Source: Candidatus Omnitrophota bacterium
Lineage (GTDB): Bacteria > Omnitrophota > Gorgyraeia > Gygaellales > Profunditerraquicolaceae
Length of the DNA stretch: 55,176 nt
Assembly (NCBI GenBank): GCA_041308845.1
Contig: JBFZAT010000044.1
Coordinates: forward strand, 1 to 55,176
Direction of reading: 5' to 3'
Part shown: positions 156 through 32,222 of the stretch, one piece after another
How positions within the stretch are numbered: the stretch's first letter is position 1
Layout: each line of letters starts with the position of its first letter
Made by a program: the position numbers and the translations under genes
The notes under the pieces: model-generated
The model's input: only the letters and a program-made list of their open reading frames with translations
Databases searched by the model: none
What the model was told of the DNA's origin: nothing

Positions 156-184
156 TTATTAAAGTTAGTCTGGGTTAGAGAATG

Positions 185-233
185 ATGAGAAACCTTTGTC
201 TGCAGTTAGAGTCTGTAGGCAAAGGTTTCTCAT
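185..233 (+). terminator. Rho-independent terminator-like hairpin
   Basis: ATGAGAAACCTTTGTCTGCAG / CTGTAGGCAAAGGTTTCTCAT inverted repeat followed by TTT. Confidence 0.75.
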
Positions 234-2773: not shown

Positions 2774-2856
2774 TCTTCGGAAGCCAGGCTATCCTATTTA
2801 TAGGACCCTATAGCTTTGCGTCCCCTTCTTACGAAGAGTTTGCCTTTATCGAAACC
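2774..2856 (-). ncRNA. c-di-GMP-I (GEMM) riboswitch aptamer
   Basis: Minus strand reads ...GATAAAGGCAAACTCTTCGTAAGAAGGGGACGCAAAGCTATAGGGTCCTATAAATAGGATAGCCTGGCTTCCGAA; has GGCAAAC, GACGCAAAGC and P2/P3 of RF01051; G at the G20-equivalent position. Confidence 0.9.
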
Positions 2857-16308: not shown

Positions 16309-16425
16309 ATAAAGATAAGATTGTTTTAATACTTCAACTTGTTGGCAACGGAGTTTAATTAATAAAGTTGTTGTGTTGGAATTAAGTTCTGTTATAGTAA
16401 TCGTTAAGTAAATAAGAGGATAAGA

Positions 16426-16512
16426 GGTCTGGAGATGTTTAGCATATCCAGAGGGTATCGATGGTCGGGCCGCCATCTTGCATGTAGATGCAGGATGGCT
16501 TTTGATTTTTTT
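16426..16512 (+). ncRNA. Monovalent-cation riboswitch-like RNA (Na+ DUF1646 / nhaA-I type) with overlapping terminator, copy 1
   Basis: GGTCTGGAGATG..CATATCCAGA hairpin, GATGGTCGGGCCGCC core, GCCATCTTGCAT/ATGCAGGATGGC terminator + T tract; upstream of mscS; class assigned from memory of consensus. Confidence 0.7.
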
Positions 16513-19842: not shown

Positions 19843-19916
19843 ATAAGGAAGAAATTTATTGCAATTGGGATTTTTTATGTTAGAGTAACAATGAATAAAT
19901 TAAAGTGATTTTAAGT

Positions 19917-19997
19917 GGTCTGGAGATGCGCAAGTATTTCTGGAGGATTTTGATGGTCGGGCCGCCATCTTGCATATAAATGCAGGGTGGTTTTTTT
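19917..19997 (+). ncRNA. Monovalent-cation riboswitch-like RNA with overlapping terminator, copy 2
   Basis: GGTCTGGAGATGC-GCAA-GTATTTCTGGA hairpin, GATGGTCGGGCCGCC core, GCCATCTTGCAT/ATGCAGGGTGGT terminator + T tract. Confidence 0.7.
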
Positions 19998-23808: not shown

Positions 23809-24153
23809 ATGAGAAGGAATGTTTTATTAGCATTGGCATTAGTTGTTGTTTTTTCTTCAAGATTGGTTTTAGCCGCAGATAAAGGATTAGCTTTAGGGGG
23901 ATTGGAAAAAGACGCCAAAAAAGCGAAGATTGAGACAAAAAAATCTACCCAGCAGGCTGAACAGGATCTGGAGAAAGCTAAAAAACAGGCTGAGCTTGAA
24001 GCTAAGAAAAAGCAGAAAGAGGCTGAGCTGAAGCAAAAGAAAGCCCAGCAGGAAGCAGACAAGAAAAAGAAGGAATTGGAGAAAAAAAAGAAGCAAGCTG
24101 AAAAGGAAGCCCAAGCCAGGAAGAAATCGTTGCAGAAAGAATGGGGAAAATAA
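23809..24153 (+). CDS. Secreted Lys/Glu/Gln/Ala-rich helical protein
   Basis: Signal peptide then repeated KKQAExEAxKK-type units. Confidence 0.75.
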   Translation: MRRNVLLALALVVVFSSRLVLAADKGLALGGLEKDAKKAKIETKKSTQQAEQDLEKAKKQAELEAKKKQKEAELKQKKAQQEADKKKKELEKKKKQAEKEAQARKKSLQKEWGK

Positions 24154-24183
24154 AATTAATTGATTCTTGAAGTTTGTTTGCCT

Positions 24184-24214
24184 AAAAGGGCTGGATATTA
24201 ATCCAGCCCTTTTT
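24184..24214 (+). terminator. Intrinsic terminator (possibly bidirectional)
   Basis: AAAAGGGCTGGAT / ATCCAGCCCTTTTT. Confidence 0.85.
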
Positions 24215-24312
24215 CGTAGGTCATAATAGCGACATAATATTTTGAACCATAATAATCTTGAACCTAAAGGCGATTAAGCCTATAATTAATTTGTCGGGCT
24301 AAAAAAATTCTA

Positions 24313-26058
24313 GTGATGATGGATATCTTGCTTATTACTCCACCTATATTTGCATCAGATACCTTCTTAATGGCCAATCCTTTATTGTTGGGGGTATTGC
24401 AAAAGAATGGACTGTCGGCCAGGCATCTGGATTTGAATTTTGATTTTAGGCAATTTGTCGGCAGCTGCTTAAAAATCAGTAAACCTGCTAATTTTAAAAA
24501 ACATCCGGGCCCAGTTTATTCCAAGCAGCTGGGATTAAGGATTCTGAATGATTATCTGCGCAGCCTTCCTAAAGCTAGTTATTATGGAATTAGCCAAACT
24601 AATCCGGAAAATTCTCTCTTTCAGCAAGCCGAACAATTCCATCCGGAAGTTGCCACCTACCATTCTTTATTATGCAATAATTTCCCTAAATTTATCGAGT
24701 TATTAAATGATCGAATCCATAACCCGTTCTATTTCTTCTACCGAAGGATCAAGATCATTGCGGCCATCCGAGTGTATCGTACTTACGCCGTTGGAATATC
24801 CCTGACTTCGCCTTCTCAATTCTTAAGCGCATTAACGCTGGCTGTACTTTTACGGAGATATTTGCCGCACTGCCATATTATATTCGGCGGTTCATATATT
24901 ACTGGTTACCGGGATGAATTTGCTTATCAGCGTACAATATCTAAACTTTGGGATAACTTAGTTATGGGCGAAGGAGAAACGCCGCTGGTTGCTTTATTAA
25001 AGTGTTTAAAAAAAACTAAGAGCGCGGATTTTAGCGGTATTCCTAATTTAATCTATAAACAAAAAGGTAGCTTTGAGCCTAAATTTTCAAATGCTGTTAC
25101 TTGGGAAAATATAGATAAACTTCCTACACCGGTCTACCCGGCGTATTCGCAAGGGAATCCGCCTGCCCTTCTTTATATTCAGGCTTCCAGGTCTTGTTAT
25201 TGGGGTAAATGTCGTTATTGTGTCCACCTGAATAATGCTTATCCGAAATATAGAATCAGAAATCCCAGATTGGTTGTTGAAGATATCGCTAGTTTGCAAA
25301 AACGACATCAGCTAAACAGTTTTTATTTTACTGATACTACTGTTTCTCCTGCAATGATTAAGCAATTGTCCGATGGGATAATCTCCAGGGGGTTGAAGGT
25401 AAGATTGGGCTGTTTTTGCAGATTAGAAAGAGGTTTTTCTTCTCGGTTGTTAACCCAGGCTTTTAGAGCCGGCTTTAATTCAATAAATTTCGGGTTGGAA
25501 ACTGTTAACCCGCGTTTAGCCAGCCTAATCTGCAAAGGTTATAATAATATTGAAGAAATTGATAGAATTATTCATGATGCTCATCGGGCGGGAATTATTC
25601 CGCTCGTCCATGCGATATTCGGATTACCGACTGAAAGAGAGCATGAAACTATGCAAACCTATAATTTTCTCAAAGAACGTATAAATATTTGTCAGCCGAT
25701 TATTGAGATCTTCAGGCTAGAGAAAAACACTGTTTTTTTTAACGAGCATAAAAAATTCGGGATAGAGATTATTAGAAGTAATGATCTGGAGCTATTTAAT
25801 AATTCTTTTCGTTACCGTTTTAGCGACCCGCGGGCGATTGGCTTTAGAAAAGCGCTTCAAATAAGGTCTCGATTCTATCGAGAAATCGCTGCCGGCGCAG
25901 GGGCTAAAGGTCAGCGATTGGCTCAGCAGGCTGCCGAATTAATAAAAACCGGAGCGGTTTTAAGTAAAGTTAACTTTAGTTTCGGTAGCAATAAGGCCAG
26001 GGTGAGCAGGTATATTCTTAGTAGTATTAAAGGGGATTTTATTATTCTTTCAGCATAA
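24313..26058 (+). CDS. B12-binding radical SAM protein
   Basis: CYWGKCRYC (CxxxCxxC); N-terminal ILLITPP, VGIS, IFGG cobalamin-binding-like domain. Confidence 0.85.
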   Translation: MMMDILLITPPIFASDTFLMANPLLLGVLQKNGLSARHLDLNFDFRQFVGSCLKISKPANFKKHPGPVYSKQLGLRILNDYLRSLPKASYYGISQTNPENSLFQQAEQFHPEVATYHSLLCNNFPKFIELLNDRIHNPFYFFYRRIKIIAAIRVYRTYAVGISLTSPSQFLSALTLAVLLRRYLPHCHIIFGGSYITGYRDEFAYQRTISKLWDNLVMGEGETPLVALLKCLKKTKSADFSGIPNLIYKQKGSFEPKFSNAVTWENIDKLPTPVYPAYSQGNPPALLYIQASRSCYWGKCRYCVHLNNAYPKYRIRNPRLVVEDIASLQKRHQLNSFYFTDTTVSPAMIKQLSDGIISRGLKVRLGCFCRLERGFSSRLLTQAFRAGFNSINFGLETVNPRLASLICKGYNNIEEIDRIIHDAHRAGIIPLVHAIFGLPTEREHETMQTYNFLKERINICQPIIEIFRLEKNTVFFNEHKKFGIEIIRSNDLELFNNSFRYRFSDPRAIGFRKALQIRSRFYREIAAGAGAKGQRLAQQAAELIKTGAVLSKVNFSFGSNKARVSRYILSSIKGDFIILSA

Positions 26059-26224
26059 TTTATGGGTTTGAGGGTTGAGCGGGCAATAATCTATCTCGAT
26101 AAATATTGTATCTGCATTTAATTGTGCTAAAATAATAGCCTCAAGCGTTTTTTACCTCTAAGACCATCTTGATGGGTATGCTGTAAAGTAATATTTCCAG
26201 AGATTCACTAAAGGTGTTGATAAA

Positions 26225-28459
26225 ATGAGAAGAGTCCTTTTATTTATTCTACCAATACTCATTATAGTGGCTTTAGCTTTTACGCTTTTTGGTTTCTTCC
26301 AGGTGCGTTTTGAAGAAGAGAAACTGATTGATGATCTGAAACGTAAAGCCAAAAGCATTGCTGAAAGTATGGAGTTATCGGTTCGCCATGTCCTTTTAGC
26401 CGATGATTTAAAAAGCGCTGATTATCTGGCTGAGAAATTCGAAAGCCGGCAAAGGCTGCAAGGCTGCGCAATCTATGATAAAGACGGCAATATAATAGCC
26501 TTGACCAGAAGGTTAAGCGATTGGAGGCAGAAAAACAGGCCTTATATTGCCGATATCATGAAAAATAAAACTCCCCGGGGAGAATTGGAGTTATTTAAAG
26601 ATTACCAGGTTTATAGTTATATCCTTCCAATTGTTAATGACGACGGGCAGTTTTTGGGTATGGTGGAGGTGATTCATGACACTTCTTATGTTTTCGCCAG
26701 GCTCACCGAGCTTTGGAAGCATATCAGTTCAACGTTGGTTATCCTGGTTGTAGTAATTTTTCTTATTGCTATTGTTCTGCACCGGCAGATTTTTGCCCTT
26801 CCCATACAACGCCTAACCGATTGGTTTAAGTATTTTCAAAGGGGAGAAATCGATAAAGCCCATCCGATTAAAGAAAAAGGAGACTTAGGTAAGCTGGCCA
26901 GTGAAGTAGAGCAGGTGGCTTTAAGTATTAGGGTGGCGCGGCGCTCGATATCAGATGAAGCACATGTCCGTATGCAGAAAGAAGAAATTTGGACTGAAGC
27001 TAAACTTAAGGACCTGATCCATGCAAAACTGGGAGATAATTCTTTTTTTGTGGTTTCCAACCGGGAACCATTTATGCATGTTTTTGATGAAGAATTAGGT
27101 AAAGCGGTATGTATCCGGCCGGCCAGTGGGGTGGTTACGGCTATTCATCCGATACTTTCTGCCTGCGGTGGCACGTGGGTTGCTCACGGTAGCGGTAATT
27201 CTGATAAAAAATTTGTTAACTCTAAAGATAAGCTGGGCGTGCCTTGCGAAGATAACCGTTATATTCTTAAAAGAGTCTGGTTAGATAAGCAGCAGGAGCA
27301 GGGATATTATTACGGTTTTTCGAATGAAGGATTATGGCCGCTTTGTCATAATACGCATACCCGACCGGTTTTTAAGGAATTTGATTGGAGGATGTATAAA
27401 GAGGTCAACCAGAAGTTTGCCGACAGTGTTTTAGAAGAATTGCCGGCCAGCAGCCCGTTTATCTTTGTGCAAGATTATCATTTTACACTTTTGCCCAAGA
27501 TGATAAAAGACAAGCGCCCGGATGCCAAAGTAGCTTTATTCTGGCATATTCCTTGGCCGACGCCGGAAGCTTTTATGATTTGTCCTTATCAGGGCGAGAT
27601 TCTAGAGGGGATGCTGGGAAGCGATCTGATCGGTTTTCATGTTCAGAATCATTGTAATAATTTTCTTGATACCGCTAATCGCCTGCTGGAGTCCCGCGTA
27701 GATACCGAAAAATTTAGTATTGTGCGTGCGGGTAAAGAGACTTTTATTAGGGCTTTCCCGATCAGTATTAATCCGCAGATCAACGACAATTCATTTAAGC
27801 GAGATCCGGTCAGGCAGATCGAGAAGTTAAAACAGGAGTTTGAGCTGGAAAATAAGATCGTGGCAGTCGGAGTAGACCGCATTGATTACACTAAAGGCAT
27901 CGTGGAAAGAATTTTAGCTATCGACAGGTTCCTGGATAAATATCCGGAGTACAAAAAGAAATTTGTTTTTATCCAGCTGGCTGCCCCCAGCCGTACGCAT
28001 ATCAAGCGCTACCATGATTTAATCGGAGAAATTGATGAGCGGGTAGAGAAAATTAACTGGAAGCATGTGGAGGCAGGTTGGAAGCCGATTGTCTACCTGA
28101 AGAAACATTTTTCTCAAGAGGATATCCATCCTTATTATCAGCTGGCTGATATTTGTATCGTTAGCTCTTTACATGATGGAATGAATCTTGTGGCTAAAGA
28201 ATATGTTGCCGAGAAAGATGATTTATCCGGATGCTTGATCTTAAGCCAGTTCACCGGAGCCGCCCGTGAACTTACCGATGCGCTCCTGGTTAATCCCTAT
28301 TCAATCGAGGAGTTTGCCGATAGCATAAAATTGGCTATTGAGATGCCCAAAGAAGAGAAGCGCAAGCGTATGGAGAGTATGCGTAAGATAATTACTAAGA
28401 ACAATATTTACCGTTGGGCAGCTAATATTATCACGGAATTAGTTGCTTTAAAAGTTTAA
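26225..28459 (+). CDS. otsA: Trehalose-6-phosphate synthase (GT20) fused to N-terminal membrane sensor/HAMP-like module
   Basis: VVSNREPF, YYGFSNEGLWP, QDYH, HIPWP, GVDRIDYTKG, DGMNLVAKEY; ~270-aa N-terminal TM-periplasmic-TM-HAMP region. Confidence 0.9.
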   Translation: MRRVLLFILPILIIVALAFTLFGFFQVRFEEEKLIDDLKRKAKSIAESMELSVRHVLLADDLKSADYLAEKFESRQRLQGCAIYDKDGNIIALTRRLSDWRQKNRPYIADIMKNKTPRGELELFKDYQVYSYILPIVNDDGQFLGMVEVIHDTSYVFARLTELWKHISSTLVILVVVIFLIAIVLHRQIFALPIQRLTDWFKYFQRGEIDKAHPIKEKGDLGKLASEVEQVALSIRVARRSISDEAHVRMQKEEIWTEAKLKDLIHAKLGDNSFFVVSNREPFMHVFDEELGKAVCIRPASGVVTAIHPILSACGGTWVAHGSGNSDKKFVNSKDKLGVPCEDNRYILKRVWLDKQQEQGYYYGFSNEGLWPLCHNTHTRPVFKEFDWRMYKEVNQKFADSVLEELPASSPFIFVQDYHFTLLPKMIKDKRPDAKVALFWHIPWPTPEAFMICPYQGEILEGMLGSDLIGFHVQNHCNNFLDTANRLLESRVDTEKFSIVRAGKETFIRAFPISINPQINDNSFKRDPVRQIEKLKQEFELENKIVAVGVDRIDYTKGIVERILAIDRFLDKYPEYKKKFVFIQLAAPSRTHIKRYHDLIGEIDERVEKINWKHVEAGWKPIVYLKKHFSQEDIHPYYQLADICIVSSLHDGMNLVAKEYVAEKDDLSGCLILSQFTGAARELTDALLVNPYSIEEFADSIKLAIEMPKEEKRKRMESMRKIITKNNIYRWAANIITELVALKV

Positions 28460-28473
28460 TTTGCGAGGTAGAA

Positions 28474-29529
28474 ATGGATGAGGATTTATTTTTAAAATTG
28501 GCTAGCTGGGCGCGCATGTTTACCCCGGTAATTATTTTTTTCGTTGTTTTCTTTCTAGGGTTGATGGTTAAAAAAATAATTTTTAGCCGTTTCTTGCTTT
28601 GGGCTAAAAAAACTTCCACCCAGCTGGATGATTTATTTATCCAGGTGCTTAAAGGGCCGTCTTTAGTTTTATGCTTGATTTTAGCTTTATATTTTGCGGT
28701 GCAATTTTCCAAGCTACCAGAAAATATTATATTAGTTATAAATAAAAGTATTCTTATCCTCGGGATCATTTCGGTGGTTTTGGCATTAACTAATCTGTTA
28801 TCTGAGCTGATCAAGATTTATTCTTTCCGGGGTGATTGTCCTCTTCCGATCAACAGTCTTACCCATAACATCGTCAGGATTTTTGTTTTTTCCATCGGCA
28901 TCCTGATTATTTTGAACAGTTTGGGTATTTCTATTACTCCGATATTAGCGACTTTAGGGGTGGGGGGTTTAGCAGTAGCGTTAGCCTTGCAGGACACTCT
29001 GACTAATCTTTTTGCCGGTTTTCATATTACGGTGGCTAAGCAGATCAAGGTCGGAGATTATATTAAGCTGGAGTCAGGAGAAGAGGGTTATGTAGTAGAT
29101 ATTAACTGGCGTTCGACGATGATCAAAATGCTGCCGAACAATCTGGTGCTTATCCCGAATGATAAATTAAATAAAGCCATCGTTACAAACTATTATGCGC
29201 CGGATAAAGAAATGGCGGTTTTAGTGAACTTAGGGGTGCATTATAAAAGCGATTTGGAAAAAGTAGAGCGGGTTACCTGTGCAGTGGCTAAATCTGTGAT
29301 GACCGAGGTCAGCGGTGGGGTAGAACATTTTGAGCCATTTATTCGCTATAATGCTTTTGCGGATTCCAGTATTAATTTCACTGTAATTTTAAGAGCCAGA
29401 GAATTTGTTGATCAATATTTGATCAAGCACGAGTTTATTAAAAGATTGCATAAGAGGTATCTTCAAGAAGGGATAAATATTCCTTATCCGATCAGGGCGA
29501 TAAATTATGAACAGGAGAAGGCAGATTAA
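28474..29529 (+). CDS. MscS family mechanosensitive channel
   Basis: LGVGGLAVALALQDTLTNLFAG, IKVGDYI, GYVVDINWRST. Confidence 0.92.
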   Translation: MDEDLFLKLASWARMFTPVIIFFVVFFLGLMVKKIIFSRFLLWAKKTSTQLDDLFIQVLKGPSLVLCLILALYFAVQFSKLPENIILVINKSILILGIISVVLALTNLLSELIKIYSFRGDCPLPINSLTHNIVRIFVFSIGILIILNSLGISITPILATLGVGGLAVALALQDTLTNLFAGFHITVAKQIKVGDYIKLESGEEGYVVDINWRSTMIKMLPNNLVLIPNDKLNKAIVTNYYAPDKEMAVLVNLGVHYKSDLEKVERVTCAVAKSVMTEVSGGVEHFEPFIRYNAFADSSINFTVILRAREFVDQYLIKHEFIKRLHKRYLQEGINIPYPIRAINYEQEKAD

Positions 29530-29537
29530 GGCTAAAA

Positions 29538-30347
29538 ATGCGTTACTTCTTTACGGACGCGGAAAAAATAAAAAAGATTCTGGAGAATAACTATTTATTT
29601 TTGTTCTTAGATTGCGATGGCACGCTGGCGCCGATTGTTAATCTTCCCCATCAGGCGGTGATTGCCAAAGAAACAAAAAGAATACTTAATCTTTTATCTA
29701 AAAGTAAAAACTGCCGGGTGGCAATCATTAGCGGAAGATCGCTGGGGGATTTGAAGAAGAAGGTTAACCTGAGAAATATCATTTATTCAGGCAACCATGG
29801 TTTACAGATTCAGGGACCTAAGTTAAAATACGAACTGCCACTGCCGCTAGATTATAGAAAAGCATTGCCGCAGATTAAGGCTCAGCTTAAAAAAAAGCTT
29901 AGCGGTATCAAAGGCATACTGCTGGAGGATAAAAAGTTTTCTTTGGCTTTGCATTTTAGGCTGGCGGATAAGCATCGGCTGCCGCTAGTCAAAACCGTTT
30001 TCCATGAGATTACTGCGGTTTATTTAGTCAGAGATCAGATTAAAGTTAAATCCGGCAAACAGGTTTTGGAAGTTAGGCCTCCGCTACCCTGGGATAAAGG
30101 CAAGGCGGTGCTGTGGCTATTAGCTAGACAGGAAATTTTCCTAAAAGATAAAAAATTTTTTCCGATTTATATCGGAGATGACCTTACCGATGAGGATGCT
30201 TTTGCGGCGTTGAAAAATAAAGGTTTGACTGTTTTAGTAGGGTTGCCTGGATCTTCTCAGGCGCAATATTATATTAAAGATGTCCAGGAGGTAAAGGATT
30301 GCTTAAAGTTTATTCTTAATATCACAACCAGTAAAAATTATGCCTGA
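29538..30347 (+). CDS. otsB: Trehalose-6-phosphate phosphatase (HAD)
   Basis: FLDCDGTL, ISGR, GNHG, WDKGKAV, GDDLTDEDAF. Confidence 0.92.
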   Translation: MRYFFTDAEKIKKILENNYLFLFLDCDGTLAPIVNLPHQAVIAKETKRILNLLSKSKNCRVAIISGRSLGDLKKKVNLRNIIYSGNHGLQIQGPKLKYELPLPLDYRKALPQIKAQLKKKLSGIKGILLEDKKFSLALHFRLADKHRLPLVKTVFHEITAVYLVRDQIKVKSGKQVLEVRPPLPWDKGKAVLWLLARQEIFLKDKKFFPIYIGDDLTDEDAFAALKNKGLTVLVGLPGSSQAQYYIKDVQEVKDCLKFILNITTSKNYA

Positions 30348-31014
30348 GATTATAAAAGCTAAAGAACCGTTTAAATTTTATACCCGCTTGCATTTGACTG
30401 AATTAACCGGGTTAAGGGCAACTACTTTAAGCCAGCTTCTGGCCTTAATTAAAAAGGTGCCCGGTTCCTGTATCTATCATCATACGCATAGATTTCTGCA
30501 GCAGCATCAATTTTTTTCTCCTGAACCGCCGAATGATTTCGCTTATTGGGTGACTGAAATATTAGGAGAAATCGAGCTTGGCGAACGCCTGGCAAGTATA
30601 GATATAATAGAATTTTCCAGAATTCATGATCTGCGGGAAAAAATTATTGCGGTGATTGAAGGTTATTTGAAAGAGGAGCGTTTCGCCCAACTTAAGTTTG
30701 CCCGGGAAGGGGAGGAGTTCCATTTCATAAAATCGGTAAGTTTTGTCGTTCCGACAAACTATATTGTGGATAACCTGCTAGATTTTGTTGAAATAATGAA
30801 AAAGATTACTTTTGACTCAATTTATTTCCATATTTTCGAAGCGCGTCTGCGCTTGGAAAAGAAAGATAATGATTTTTCTAACTGGATAGATCATTCGCTA
30901 GGAGACCAGGCGCTGGCCGATGAGATTAGCGCGTTGGATCCTTACACCCGGACCCTGGATGATTTACGCGCGGCGATTATTAATATTATCGAGAAAAAAC
31001 TAACACAACGATGA
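30340..31014 (+). CDS. DUF5752 family protein
   Basis: IYHHTH, NDFAYWV..LGERLA repeated as NDFSNWI..ALADEI; usual neighbour of TreT. Confidence 0.8.
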   Translation: MPEIIKAKEPFKFYTRLHLTELTGLRATTLSQLLALIKKVPGSCIYHHTHRFLQQHQFFSPEPPNDFAYWVTEILGEIELGERLASIDIIEFSRIHDLREKIIAVIEGYLKEERFAQLKFAREGEEFHFIKSVSFVVPTNYIVDNLLDFVEIMKKITFDSIYFHIFEARLRLEKKDNDFSNWIDHSLGDQALADEISALDPYTRTLDDLRAAIINIIEKKLTQR

Positions 31015-32222
31015 ATAAACTGGAAGAATATATACCGATTGTAGGGCAATCTGTGATTGACGATTTAAAGTTGATCGCTACGCGCTTAGAAAATAAAACT
31101 ATCCAGCATATCAATTCGACTTCGGTAGGAGGCGGAGTGGCGGAGATTCTTACCCGGATGGTGCCCTTGCTTCAGGAATTAGGGGTGAATACACGCTGGG
31201 ATTTAATTAAAGGCGGCGAACAATTCTTCGAAGTGACCAAAAAATTCCATAATGCTTTGCATGGCCACCCGGAAGAGATAGCTAAAAAAGATTTTGATAC
31301 TTTTTTGGAAACCAGCCAACGCAATATCGATGAGCTGAATACAGACAATGATATTGTTTTTGTCCATGACCCTCAGCCGATTGCGCTAATTAATAAAAAA
31401 CAGGATAATAAATGGCTTTGGCGTTGTCATGTGGATGTTTCTAATCCTAATGCTAAGGTTTGGGATTTTCTTATGGAGTATATTGTGCGTTACGATGCAG
31501 CCGTATTTTCTGCTCCGAGTTTTTCGCCTAGATTGCCGATTCGCCAATTTTTGATTTCTCCTTCTATTGATCCTCTAAGCGATAAAAATAGGGAGTTGCC
31601 GCAGGAGGTAATCGAAAAGGTATTGTTAAAATACCAGATTCCCCAGGATAAACCGATTATTACTCAGATATCGCGTTTCGATCGCCTTAAGGATCCTTTA
31701 GGTGTAATTGAAGCTTATAAAGAAGTTAAAAAACATATTAACTGTCGGCTGGTTTTAGCCGGAGGTGGGGCTGCTGATGATCCGGAAGGGGCGATGATTT
31801 TTACTCAAGCAATGGAAAAGGCCAAGAATGATAAAGACATCCATATTTTACTGCTGGCGCAGAATGATATTGAGATTAACGCTTTGCAGAGAGCTTCTAC
31901 GGTAATTATACAAAAATCTATCCGGGAAGGTTTTGGTTTAACCGTTGCGGAGGCTTTATGGAAGGCTAAGCCGGTAGTTGCTTCTAACGTGGGGGGGATA
32001 CCCTTACAGGTTAAACATAAATATTCCGGCCTGCTATGTCATTCTGTTTCAGGAGCGGCTTTTGCGATTAAGCAGCTTTTGAATAGCCCGGCCTATGCGC
32101 TGCGCTTAGGGGAAAACGGGCGGGAACATATCCGGAACAATTTTTTGATTACCCGGCATCTAAAGAGCTACCTGCTCTTATTTCATTCTTTGTATCACCG
32201 AGAGGATGTTGTTTATTTATAG
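31011..32222 (+). CDS. treT: Trehalose synthase TreT-like GT4 glycosyltransferase
   Basis: HINSTSVGGGVAEIL, VHDPQP, WRCHVD, SRFDRLKDP, EGFGLTVAEALWK. Confidence 0.85.
   Translation: MNKLEEYIPIVGQSVIDDLKLIATRLENKTIQHINSTSVGGGVAEILTRMVPLLQELGVNTRWDLIKGGEQFFEVTKKFHNALHGHPEEIAKKDFDTFLETSQRNIDELNTDNDIVFVHDPQPIALINKKQDNKWLWRCHVDVSNPNAKVWDFLMEYIVRYDAAVFSAPSFSPRLPIRQFLISPSIDPLSDKNRELPQEVIEKVLLKYQIPQDKPIITQISRFDRLKDPLGVIEAYKEVKKHINCRLVLAGGGAADDPEGAMIFTQAMEKAKNDKDIHILLLAQNDIEINALQRASTVIIQKSIREGFGLTVAEALWKAKPVVASNVGGIPLQVKHKYSGLLCHSVSGAAFAIKQLLNSPAYALRLGENGREHIRNNFLITRHLKSYLLLFHSLYHREDVVYL

Follow-up and report, generated by a model that had tools for sequence, protein, structure and literature searches.

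The window analysed here, a 55,176-nucleotide stretch of contig JBFZAT010000044.1 from a Candidatus Omnitrophota bacterium (assembly GCA_041308845.1), contains one open reading frame (26225-28459, forward strand) of 744 residues in which a predicted sensor module is fused to the N-terminus of an OtsA-type trehalose-6-phosphate synthase. Six parts were recognised in the protein, in the order TM1, Cache/PDC, TM2, HAMP, helical joint and GT20/OtsA, and the gene is the first of an MscS/OtsB/DUF5752/TreT operon (Table 1). Searches with profiles and structural models confirmed this arrangement as a TM/Cache/TM/HAMP module joined to GT20 within a single predicted protein. The fusion was the sole GT20 gene found in the genome (1.41 Mb, 92% complete), and a paralogous kinase with the same input module was ruled out there, as only the fusion itself matched (E<=0.001). 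An assembly or frameshift artefact was ruled out by occurrence of the same frame in 94 genomes, and an OtsA-OtsB fusion by the N-terminal position of the extension, the lack of a Trehalose_PPase domain in the protein and the presence of OtsB as a separate gene. Genes for peptidoglycan remodelling were also noted a few kb upstream of the fusion in the window.

Table 1. Predicted features of the sensor-OtsA fusion gene and of the genes that follow it (positions in the window; residues of the fusion protein).
Feature	Position	Strand	Basis or remark
Shine-Dalgarno AAGGTG	26211..26216	+	8 nt 5' of ATG; read from sequence
Whole sensor-OtsA fusion gene	26225..28459	+	744 aa; orthologues ~745 aa
TM1, residues ~4-25	26234..26299	+	Hydropathy; AF2 continuous helix 2-59
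Single Cache/PDC-like domain, WalK-like, extracytoplasmic, residues ~26-166	26300..26722	+	Pfam dCache_3, 5is1 profile match, Foldseek 4ywz
TM2, residues ~167-186	26723..26782	+	Hydropathy; AF2 helix 154-205
HAMP domain, residues ~187-240	26783..26944	+	Orthologue Pfam matches, Af1503/Tsr, WalK model, conserved residues
Helical joint, residues 241-273	26945..27043	+	AF2; soluble relatives; fixed spacing
GT20/OtsA catalytic domain, residues 274-739	27044..28441	+	Pfam, 5jij, substrate residues
MscS-type mechanosensitive channel, next gene	28474..29529	+	Pfam MS_channel domains 1-3
OtsB, trehalose-6-phosphate phosphatase	29538..30347	+	TIGR00685 164.5 bits vs cut-off 68
DUF5752 protein	30340..31014	+	Pfam E 3e-69
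TreT-like GT4 glycosyltransferase	31011..32222	+	Pfam TreT_GT1 + Glycos_transf_1; NCBIfam TreT 375 bits, under equivalog cut-off

The initial annotation had described about 270 residues with the layout of a histidine-kinase input ahead of the GT20 domain, and this description agreed both with the start of the Pfam GT20 match at residue 274 and with the homology of the preceding region, in sequence and in fold, to the TM/Cache/TM/HAMP input of WalK. Hydropathy indicated two hydrophobic segments, the first of which was assigned a cytoplasmic N-terminus of sequence MRR. A cleavable signal peptide was rejected for this segment, no cleavage-type motif being seen by eye and the AF2 helix being continuous. 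The inter-helix loop of approximately 140 residues scored 28-31 bits with Pfam dCache_3 (cut-off 25.7), over half of the profile only, and just under the cut-off with sCache_3_2. A single-sequence PDB search with the N-terminus gave nothing better than E>0.1, and a profile of 21 orthologues matched the WalK extracellular domain 5is1 with an E-value of 3.7e-5. In Foldseek comparisons, the AlphaFold model (pLDDT 77) matched crystal structures of WalK sensor domains with TM-scores of 0.74-0.77 and rmsd values of 2.6-3.1 Å (best for 4ywz, TM-score 0.77) at a sequence identity of 21-22%, followed by matches to KinD, DcuS and CitA, and a comparison with a model of the full WalK input module gave a TM-score of 0.72 over 260 columns. 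These matches assign to the region between the two TM helices a PDC fold, which is characterised by a long N-terminal helix followed by a five-stranded sheet with flanking helices. A double Cache domain was rejected, since the size of the loop, the half-profile match to dCache_3 and the fold match to WalK all point to a single Cache/PDC-like domain. The only invariant residues of the domain in the 21-orthologue alignment were F72 and G80, and no conserved ligand-pocket motif was recognised among the orthologues. Identity between classes was 14-32% in this domain, and the loop was more conserved than the TM helices. Weak Pfam matches to CHASE8 and SMP_2 were noted for several orthologues, and a match to the NCBIfam model 'HK near YfiR-like' was also seen.

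Pfam HAMP (PF00672) failed to match the window protein, even as sub-fragments at E<=10, but matched 11 of 21 orthologues (best E 5e-5). Orthologue P0124 exceeded the cut-off of 25 bits with a score of 26.5 over residues 188-236, which correspond to the HAMP position in the window protein. The family profile aligned in register with the HAMP structures of Af1503 and Tsr over positions 192-241, with marginal E-values of 0.01-0.02, and the NCBIfam WalK model aligned residues 5-245 with its own TM-sensor-TM-HAMP part at an E-value of 5e-11. The hallmark residues P193, G207, L224/E227 and A232 were invariant or almost so, with AS1 starting at P193, the connector at G207 and AS2 at about residue 220. 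A helix-connector-helix directly after the last TM segment was seen in the AF2 monomer model (helix 154-205, loop 206-219, helix 220-250), in which residues 200-255 were weakly modelled (pLDDT 47-68). These results indicate that the motif PIQRLTDW...GEI...GDLGKLA, noted earlier as HAMP-like, is the AS1-connector-AS2 of a predicted HAMP domain, and the proposed domain search revealed homology to both Cache and HAMP. No Pfam or NCBIfam match to DHp (HisKA) or HATPase_c was noted downstream of HAMP, where GT20 fills residues 274-739. The kinase-like part is limited to the input module and the protein is therefore not a histidine kinase.

In the joint between HAMP and enzyme, the extension of AS2 reaches the invariant pair W256-T257, which is followed in the AF2 model by a helix of residues 258-269. 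Enzymes of the OtsA subfamily concerned natively begin with this helix, as is seen in the soluble members, which start at the W-T/N helix as MW(T/N)..L. It stops 11 residues short of R280, which corresponds to Arg9 of E. coli OtsA, a residue that binds glucose-6-phosphate. W256-T257 and the SNREP strand were spaced by 22 residues in each of 132 proteins compared, and P193 and W256 by 63 residues in 121 of the 132. By these alignments, the point at which the sensor is attached is precisely the helix with which the enzyme natively begins.

The catalytic domain was covered nearly end to end by Pfam Glyco_transf_20 (profile positions 3-471 of 473, E 1.8e-126, score 423 bits, cut-off 32.5). Its closest solved relative was the OtsA structure 5jij (E 3.7e-90), and it was 35% identical to E. 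coli OtsA, for which eleven substrate-binding residues have been listed (PMC1769515). Ten of these eleven were kept in the alignment, Trp40 having no unambiguous counterpart. Thus, Arg9, Gly22, Tyr76, Trp85 and Asp130 of the E. coli enzyme correspond to R280, G302, Y362, W371 and D417 of the window protein, and His154, Arg262, Arg300, Asp361 and Glu369 correspond to H441, R552, R590, D651 and E659. All ten were invariant among 30 diverse sequences. The catalytic domain is accordingly intact as far as sequence can tell and is predicted to be a trehalose-6-phosphate synthase.

Of 301 Omnitrophota genomes sampled, 94 had a strong match to the N-terminal module (E<=1e-17), in frames of about 745 residues (nearly all 740-780), among which N-terminal identity dropped to 22-26%. 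Since 190 of the same 301 genomes carried any GT20 gene, the fusion was present in approximately half of the GT20-bearing genomes; the rest use a soluble or other form, which indicates that the pathway can do without the sensor. The same full-length form was noted in proteins of Acidobacteriota and Bdellovibrionota, and further clusters of proteins of much the same length were seen, most often from Methylomirabilota and Acidobacteriota. The two-TM layout, with a loop of 130-165 residues and a cytoplasmic linker of 70-95 residues, was kept even where the loop sequence had diverged beyond recognition, and two-TM forms fell within one clade (support 0.96-0.985). This distribution indicates that the fusion is old and conserved. 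A literature search, beyond the reach of which lay most papers in subscription journals, found no description of a TM/Cache/TM/HAMP-OtsA architecture, and the design of the fusion seems to be conserved but unstudied.

Other members of the same OtsA subfamily were found to carry different membrane modules. Fusions to MscS-like modules have arisen twice and fusions to Na+/H+ exchanger modules occur in two separate lineages, with both kinds of module placed at the same junction point as the sensor of the window protein. Fusion of this enzyme subfamily to other membrane modules that serve osmotic or ion homeostasis has thus been recurrent and independent.

The surroundings of the gene point in a similar direction. 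Among 20 related loci, OtsB was beside the fusion in all 20, the DUF5752 and TreT-like pair was present in 14 and MscS adjoined the fusion in eight. A riboswitch lay directly upstream of the operon in nine of the 20 relatives, of the nhaA-I (Na+-type) class at seven loci and of the c-di-AMP class at two. An Rfam search of positions 24100-26400 at a permissive threshold gave no riboswitch upstream of the window gene, and a scan for promoters and terminators was uninformative. Overall, the predicted gene context of the fusion is one of osmotic or ionic stress.

The reading that we favour, with a probability of roughly 60%, is that the fusion protein is a dimeric receptor-enzyme of the inner membrane in which an envelope, salt or osmotic signal would gate trehalose-6-phosphate synthesis. 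HAMP domains act as parallel dimers, and a homodimer is therefore probable. The extracytoplasmic WalK-like Cache/PDC domain and the two membrane helices would pass on a conformational signal, most likely one of salt, osmotic or envelope stress, and this signal would travel via the cytoplasmic HAMP four-helix bundle and the fixed-length joint. Movement of the enzyme's own N-terminal helix, in which the joint terminates, would switch the enzyme on or off and with it the conversion of UDP-glucose and glucose-6-phosphate to trehalose-6-phosphate, from which the co-transcribed OtsB would then free trehalose. The parts of this reading that we infer are dimerisation, control of activity by the N-terminal module, which way the switch works and what signal drives it; candidate signals include a solute or ligand, salt, the state of the membrane, envelope or peptidoglycan status and a partner protein. 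The proposal of the initial annotation that an external signal directly gates the enzyme is thus supported in part, through the architecture, the intact catalytic domain, the age of the fusion and its gene context. An architecture of this kind may let the envelope turn on synthesis of a protectant without gene regulation.

A receptor-enzyme that, in the manner of WalK and YfiN-type receptors, answers to a non-osmotic signal, such as a periplasmic ligand, products of peptidoglycan turnover or a partner protein, and that ties trehalose-6-phosphate synthesis to envelope or growth status, was considered unlikely. WalK, the closest structural relative of the sensor, is no osmosensor, and WalK extracellular domains were the best matches of the sensor in both sequence and fold, although an identity of 21-22% is uninformative on the ligand. 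The weak CHASE8, SMP_2 and 'HK near YfiR-like' matches and the peptidoglycan-remodelling genes upstream are consistent with such a signal, whereas the operon partners and the riboswitches of relatives suggest that control is by salt or osmotic conditions. Also against it, the modules fused to this enzyme in parallel cases are those of MscS and Na+/H+ exchangers. Rapid divergence of the loop sequence between lineages, with constant layout, is typical of ligand-specific sensors; on the other hand, a periplasmic partner gene conserved across the 20 related loci was not found.

It is quite improbable, in our estimate, that the N-terminal module is a mere membrane tether or dimerisation scaffold that has lost signalling and only places OtsA, for example, near MscS or a supply of substrate. 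Co-localisation could explain the transporter and channel fusions equally well. A tether, however, would need no more than one helix, whereas a folded loop of 130-165 residues, a second helix and the HAMP hallmarks have been kept across phyla. Similarly, the low identity of the periplasmic domain between classes and the weak HAMP scores would fit a tether, while the strictly fixed 22-residue spacing to the catalytic domain and the greater conservation of the loop than of the TM helices would not. Synthesis of another GT20 product, such as glucosylglycerol-phosphate, with the sensor controlling a different solute, seems very improbable indeed, since OtsA models scored highest, ten of the eleven residues listed as binding glucose-6-phosphate and UDP-glucose in the E. 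coli enzyme were kept (Trp40 being unmapped) and in 20/20 loci the gene is followed by a trehalose-phosphatase, one that scores above its equivalog cut-off, even though the GgpS model also matched (E 5.7e-94) and the score of 431.8 bits with the OtsA equivalog TIGR02400 was under the curated cut-off of 564.85, a naming threshold that is neither a fold nor a motif criterion.

If the gated receptor-enzyme is taken further, HAMP transmembrane signalling would directly gate a GT-B glycosyltransferase, giving a single-protein 'osmostat' through which the envelope sets the level of compatible-solute synthesis without kinase, second messenger or transcription, and the N-terminal helix of the OtsA subfamily would serve as a handle for regulation, repeatedly wired in evolution to Cache-HAMP modules, MscS-like channels and Na+/H+ exchangers, including mechanosensitive or ion-coupled control of the enzyme. 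This extension is tentative and we would not give it even odds. No precedent for control of a GT-B fold enzyme by a HAMP bundle was found.

Soluble OtsA/TPS enzymes (E. coli 1gz5 and 1uqu, Mycolicibacterium thermoresistibile 5jij) share the GT20 catalytic domain and the OtsB partner with the fusion, which carries a 255-residue N-terminal TM/Cache/TM/HAMP module not known from any characterised OtsA and on that account is predicted to be membrane-bound. Known regulation of OtsA is by K+ or allosteric metabolites, with no fused receptor. When osmotic conditions shift, bacteria adjust their compatible-solute synthesis within seconds, and the explanations given for this are mostly indirect effects such as K+ stimulation and transcription. 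A receptor fused to the enzyme that opens the trehalose pathway would, if the favoured reading is true, provide a direct and experimentally tractable link between an envelope signal and metabolic flux. The input of WalK (YycG; 4ywz, 5is1, 7dud, model 9a5d) has the same order of TM1, single Cache/PDC, TM2 and HAMP; compared with WalK, to which it is about 22% identical, the fusion lacks the PAS, DHp and ATPase domains of the cytoplasmic part as well as a response regulator, and its output is a metabolic glycosyltransferase. The logic by which a two-TM sensor and HAMP drive a fused catalytic domain is common to the fusion, the mycobacterial adenylyl cyclase Rv3645 and the CHASE8-HAMP-GGDEF cyclases (YfiN/DgcN). 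The outputs of these cyclases are second messengers made by obligate dimers across the active site, whereas that of the fusion is a GT-B enzyme of compatible-solute and primary metabolism. Gating of the kind proposed would add such an enzyme to the HAMP outputs and would bear on how HAMP is read out by enzymes without a dimeric active site. In class I TPS of plants and yeast, an N-terminal extension or subunits serve as a regulatory handle on the GT20 domain, but these eukaryotic extensions are soluble, unrelated in sequence and without TM, Cache or HAMP.

Members of the family are common among uncultured phyla (Omnitrophota, Acidobacteriota, Bdellovibrionota and probably Methylomirabilota), and since its database label is simply 'trehalose-6-phosphate synthase', the regulatory half is overlooked where stress physiology is inferred from metagenomes. 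Control of a trehalose-6-phosphate synthase at the protein level, by a GT, has been reported for the TPSP-GT-MSC trehalose operon of Thermoproteus tenax (Zaparty et al. 2013, PMC3634074). There, as in the window, a single stress module combines the synthase gene with those of a GT4-type glycosyltransferase and a mechanosensitive channel. The T. tenax enzyme is soluble, fused to the phosphatase and controlled by complex formation (PMC3634074), whereas that of the window is fused to a predicted membrane receptor.

The window gene for the trehalose-6-phosphate (T6P) synthase with an N-terminal receptor-like module (sensor-OtsA) carried a ribosome-binding site, AAGGTG, 8 nt 5' of its ATG and was the sole GT20 gene detected in the source genome, that of an uncultured Candidatus Omnitrophota (1.41 Mb, 92% complete). 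The approximately 140 residues between the membrane helices matched Pfam dCache_3 above the gathering score, over half of the profile only, and sCache_3_2 slightly under its score. The TM-sensor-TM-HAMP portion of the NCBIfam model for the sensor histidine kinase WalK aligned with residues 5-245 (E 5e-11), and a profile made from the N-terminal modules of 21 orthologues matched the crystal structure of the WalK extracellular domain (5is1, E 3.7e-5) as well as, in register at positions 192-241, the HAMP domains of Tsr and Af1503 (E 0.01-0.02). Pfam HAMP gave no match in the window protein itself and matched 11 of the 21 orthologues (best E 5e-5); in the orthologue P0124, a 50%-cluster representative, it exceeded the Pfam cut-off at the equivalent position (residues 188-236).

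Coordinates of features in the window and, where indicated, residues of sensor-OtsA
Feature	Position	Strand	Remarks
c-di-GMP-I-GGC riboswitch	2775-2853	-	Rfam, above gathering score
nhaA-I riboswitch	16425-16478	+	Rfam, above gathering score; precedes another operon
nhaA-I riboswitch	19916-19970	+	Rfam, above gathering score; precedes another operon
B12-binding radical SAM protein	24313-26058	+	RiPP C-methyltransferase-like by NCBIfam, below cut-offs; immediately upstream of trehalose operon
sensor-OtsA fusion gene	26225-28459	+	ORF, 744 aa
Membrane helices of sensor-OtsA	residues about 4-25 and 167-186		hydropathy
Glyco_transf_20 domain of sensor-OtsA	residues 274-739		Pfam, E 1.8e-126
MscS	28474-29529		directly after sensor-OtsA
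OtsB	29538-30347		after MscS
DUF5752	30340-31014		overlaps end of OtsB
TreT-like GT4	31011-32222		overlaps end of DUF5752

An AlphaFold model of residues 1-275 (pLDDT 77) began with a long helix (2-59), ahead of a PDC-type alpha/beta domain (62-152); another long helix (154-205) came next, then a loop and helices 220-254 and 258-272. The top Foldseek match of this model was a full-length WalK model (TM 0.72 across 260 columns), followed by crystal structures of the WalK extracellular domain (TM 0.74-0.77, rmsd 2.6-3.1 A) and then by the sensor domains of KinD, DcuS and CitA. Thus, the arrangement proposed in the initial annotation, i.e., TM, Cache-like region, TM and HAMP-like region ahead of GT20, was borne out, with the refinement that only one Cache/PDC domain lies outside the membrane. 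When the whole protein was modelled as a monomer (pLDDT 83), the Cache and GT20 domains were confident and residues 200-255 weak, as would be expected if this segment folds solely as a dimer; the model itself gives no positive support for a dimer.

These features are best read, with a probability of about 0.6, as those of a dimeric receptor-enzyme whose Cache/TM/HAMP module would control T6P synthesis in response to salt, osmotic or envelope stress; what we infer is gating, the direction in which it works and the nature of the signal. Sensor-OtsA combines known kinds of protein, HAMP receptors and OtsA. Full-text literature searches returned no account of a sensor (TM/Cache/HAMP)-T6P synthase architecture, and an Omnitrophota paper merely listed 'trehalose synthesis'. 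The WalK likeness of the sensor might point instead to the same kind of receptor-enzyme sensing a particular periplasmic ligand or the state of the cell wall, which we consider rather unlikely.

Soluble relatives of this OtsA subfamily start with a short helix, M-W-(T/N)-x-x-x-L, that precedes the SNREP strand by about 20 residues, and the same motif, W256-T257 of sensor-OtsA, was invariant both among the 21 orthologues and in an alignment of 30 diverse family members. The receptor module is therefore grafted onto the enzyme's own N-terminus. Among 132 family proteins, many of them closely related, the spacing from W-T to SNR was 22 residues in all and that from the HAMP proline to W-T was 63 in 121, small indels being present outside Omnitrophota. 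The native N-terminal helix ends 11 residues ahead of R280, the counterpart of the glucose-6-phosphate (G6P)-binding Arg9 of E. coli OtsA, and we infer from this a hint of how a pull on, or rotation of, this helix could affect acceptor binding. A module serving as a mere tether or scaffold seems less probable still than one reading a periplasmic ligand.

Fusion to membrane modules was recurrent in this enzyme subfamily. Two-TM N-terminal extensions were present in 24 of the 150 best 50%-identity representatives, with loops of 130-165 aa (one of 301 aa) and cytoplasmic linkers of 70-95 aa even where the loops lacked sequence similarity. The extracytoplasmic loop of 301 aa, roughly double the ordinary length, belongs to P0122 (913 aa), which shows exchange or expansion of the sensor part with TM2-HAMP-OtsA kept. 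In a FastTree phylogeny of the catalytic domain, the 2-TM forms fell in one clade (support 0.96-0.985), with some short or truncated entries interspersed. Fused at the same N-terminal point was an MscS-like channel domain in P0136 (851 aa) and P0166 (725 aa), and P0171 (919 aa) and P0184 (917 aa) carried there, by Pfam, the full membrane domain of a Na+/H+ exchanger (CPA), N-terminal to GT20; P0168 (744 aa) is probably another exchanger fusion, judging from its tree position beside P0171. Since each MscS fusion was sister to a different soluble form and the exchanger fusions lay in two separate lineages, these fusions look independent in origin. That this enzyme has repeatedly been joined to membrane proteins concerned with osmotic and ion homeostasis speaks for functional coupling and against chance.

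Catalytic residues were mapped by alignment to E. coli K-12 OtsA with the residue list quoted in PMC1769515. Arg9, Gly22, Tyr76, Trp85 and Asp130 of the E. coli enzyme corresponded to R280, G302, Y362, W371 and D417 of sensor-OtsA, and His154, Arg262, Arg300, Asp361 and Glu369 to H441, R552, R590, D651 and E659; all ten substrate-binding counterparts were invariant among the 30 diverse family members, and the mapping of Trp40 was ambiguous. The closest solved relative was mycobacterial OtsA (5jij, E 3.7e-90). The OtsA equivalog score was under the NCBI naming threshold and the operon phosphatase scored above the T6PP threshold; that the domain makes a different GT20 product is very improbable.

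Residues 1-275 were searched against 301 Omnitrophota genomes translated in six frames and gave 96 strong matches (E <= 1e-17), distributed over 94 genomes and nearly all lying within open frames of 740-780 aa, with identity falling to 22-26% in other classes. Any GT20 gene was present in 190 of the same genomes; thus, about half of the sampled trehalose-capable Omnitrophota use the sensor-fused form, and the rest had frames of approximately 490-520 aa or other long forms. Two genomes (G087 and G176) each carried two separate fusion copies. In a word-based protein search, 864 proteins matched the N-terminal region; nearly all of the best 120 had a length of about 745 aa (a few records were shorter or partial), and the name given was simply 'trehalose-6-phosphate synthase', to which one JGI name added 'HAMP domain-containing protein'. 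Full-length relatives also occurred among records named Acidobacteriota and Bdellovibrionota, and Atlas clusters of 740-757 aa with GT20 only were commonest in Omnitrophota, Methylomirabilota and Acidobacteriota.

The genes from sensor-OtsA to the TreT-like GT4 were closely spaced or overlapping throughout. Among 20 related loci, OtsB adjoined the fusion in all; DUF5752 together with TreT did so in 14, as did an MscS homologue in 8. In every case DUF5752 was paired with the TreT-like gene, and the two often overlapped (30340-32222 in the window and the same 14 loci). In Thermoproteus tenax, too, a T6P synthase shares an operon with a GT4 protein and a mechanosensitive channel, and the GT activates the synthase (PMC3634074); by analogy, the DUF5752/TreT-like pair might have a regulatory role instead of providing a second trehalose route.

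A riboswitch lay directly upstream of the operon in 9 of the 20 loci, of the nhaA-I (Na+/Li+) class in L002, L003, L004, L007, L011, L018 and probably L020 and of the c-di-AMP class in L015 and L016. An Rfam search of window positions 24100-26400 gave no match even at E<=1, leaving the region upstream of sensor-OtsA (26059-26224) without a riboswitch. The B12-binding radical SAM gene adjoined the fusion in none of the 20 loci. Locus L003 also contained a group I intron match (1960-2199, + strand, 62 bits) approximately 900 bp 3' of the TreT-like gene, and L012 a tRNA match of unusual length (1025-1126, + strand, 102 nt).
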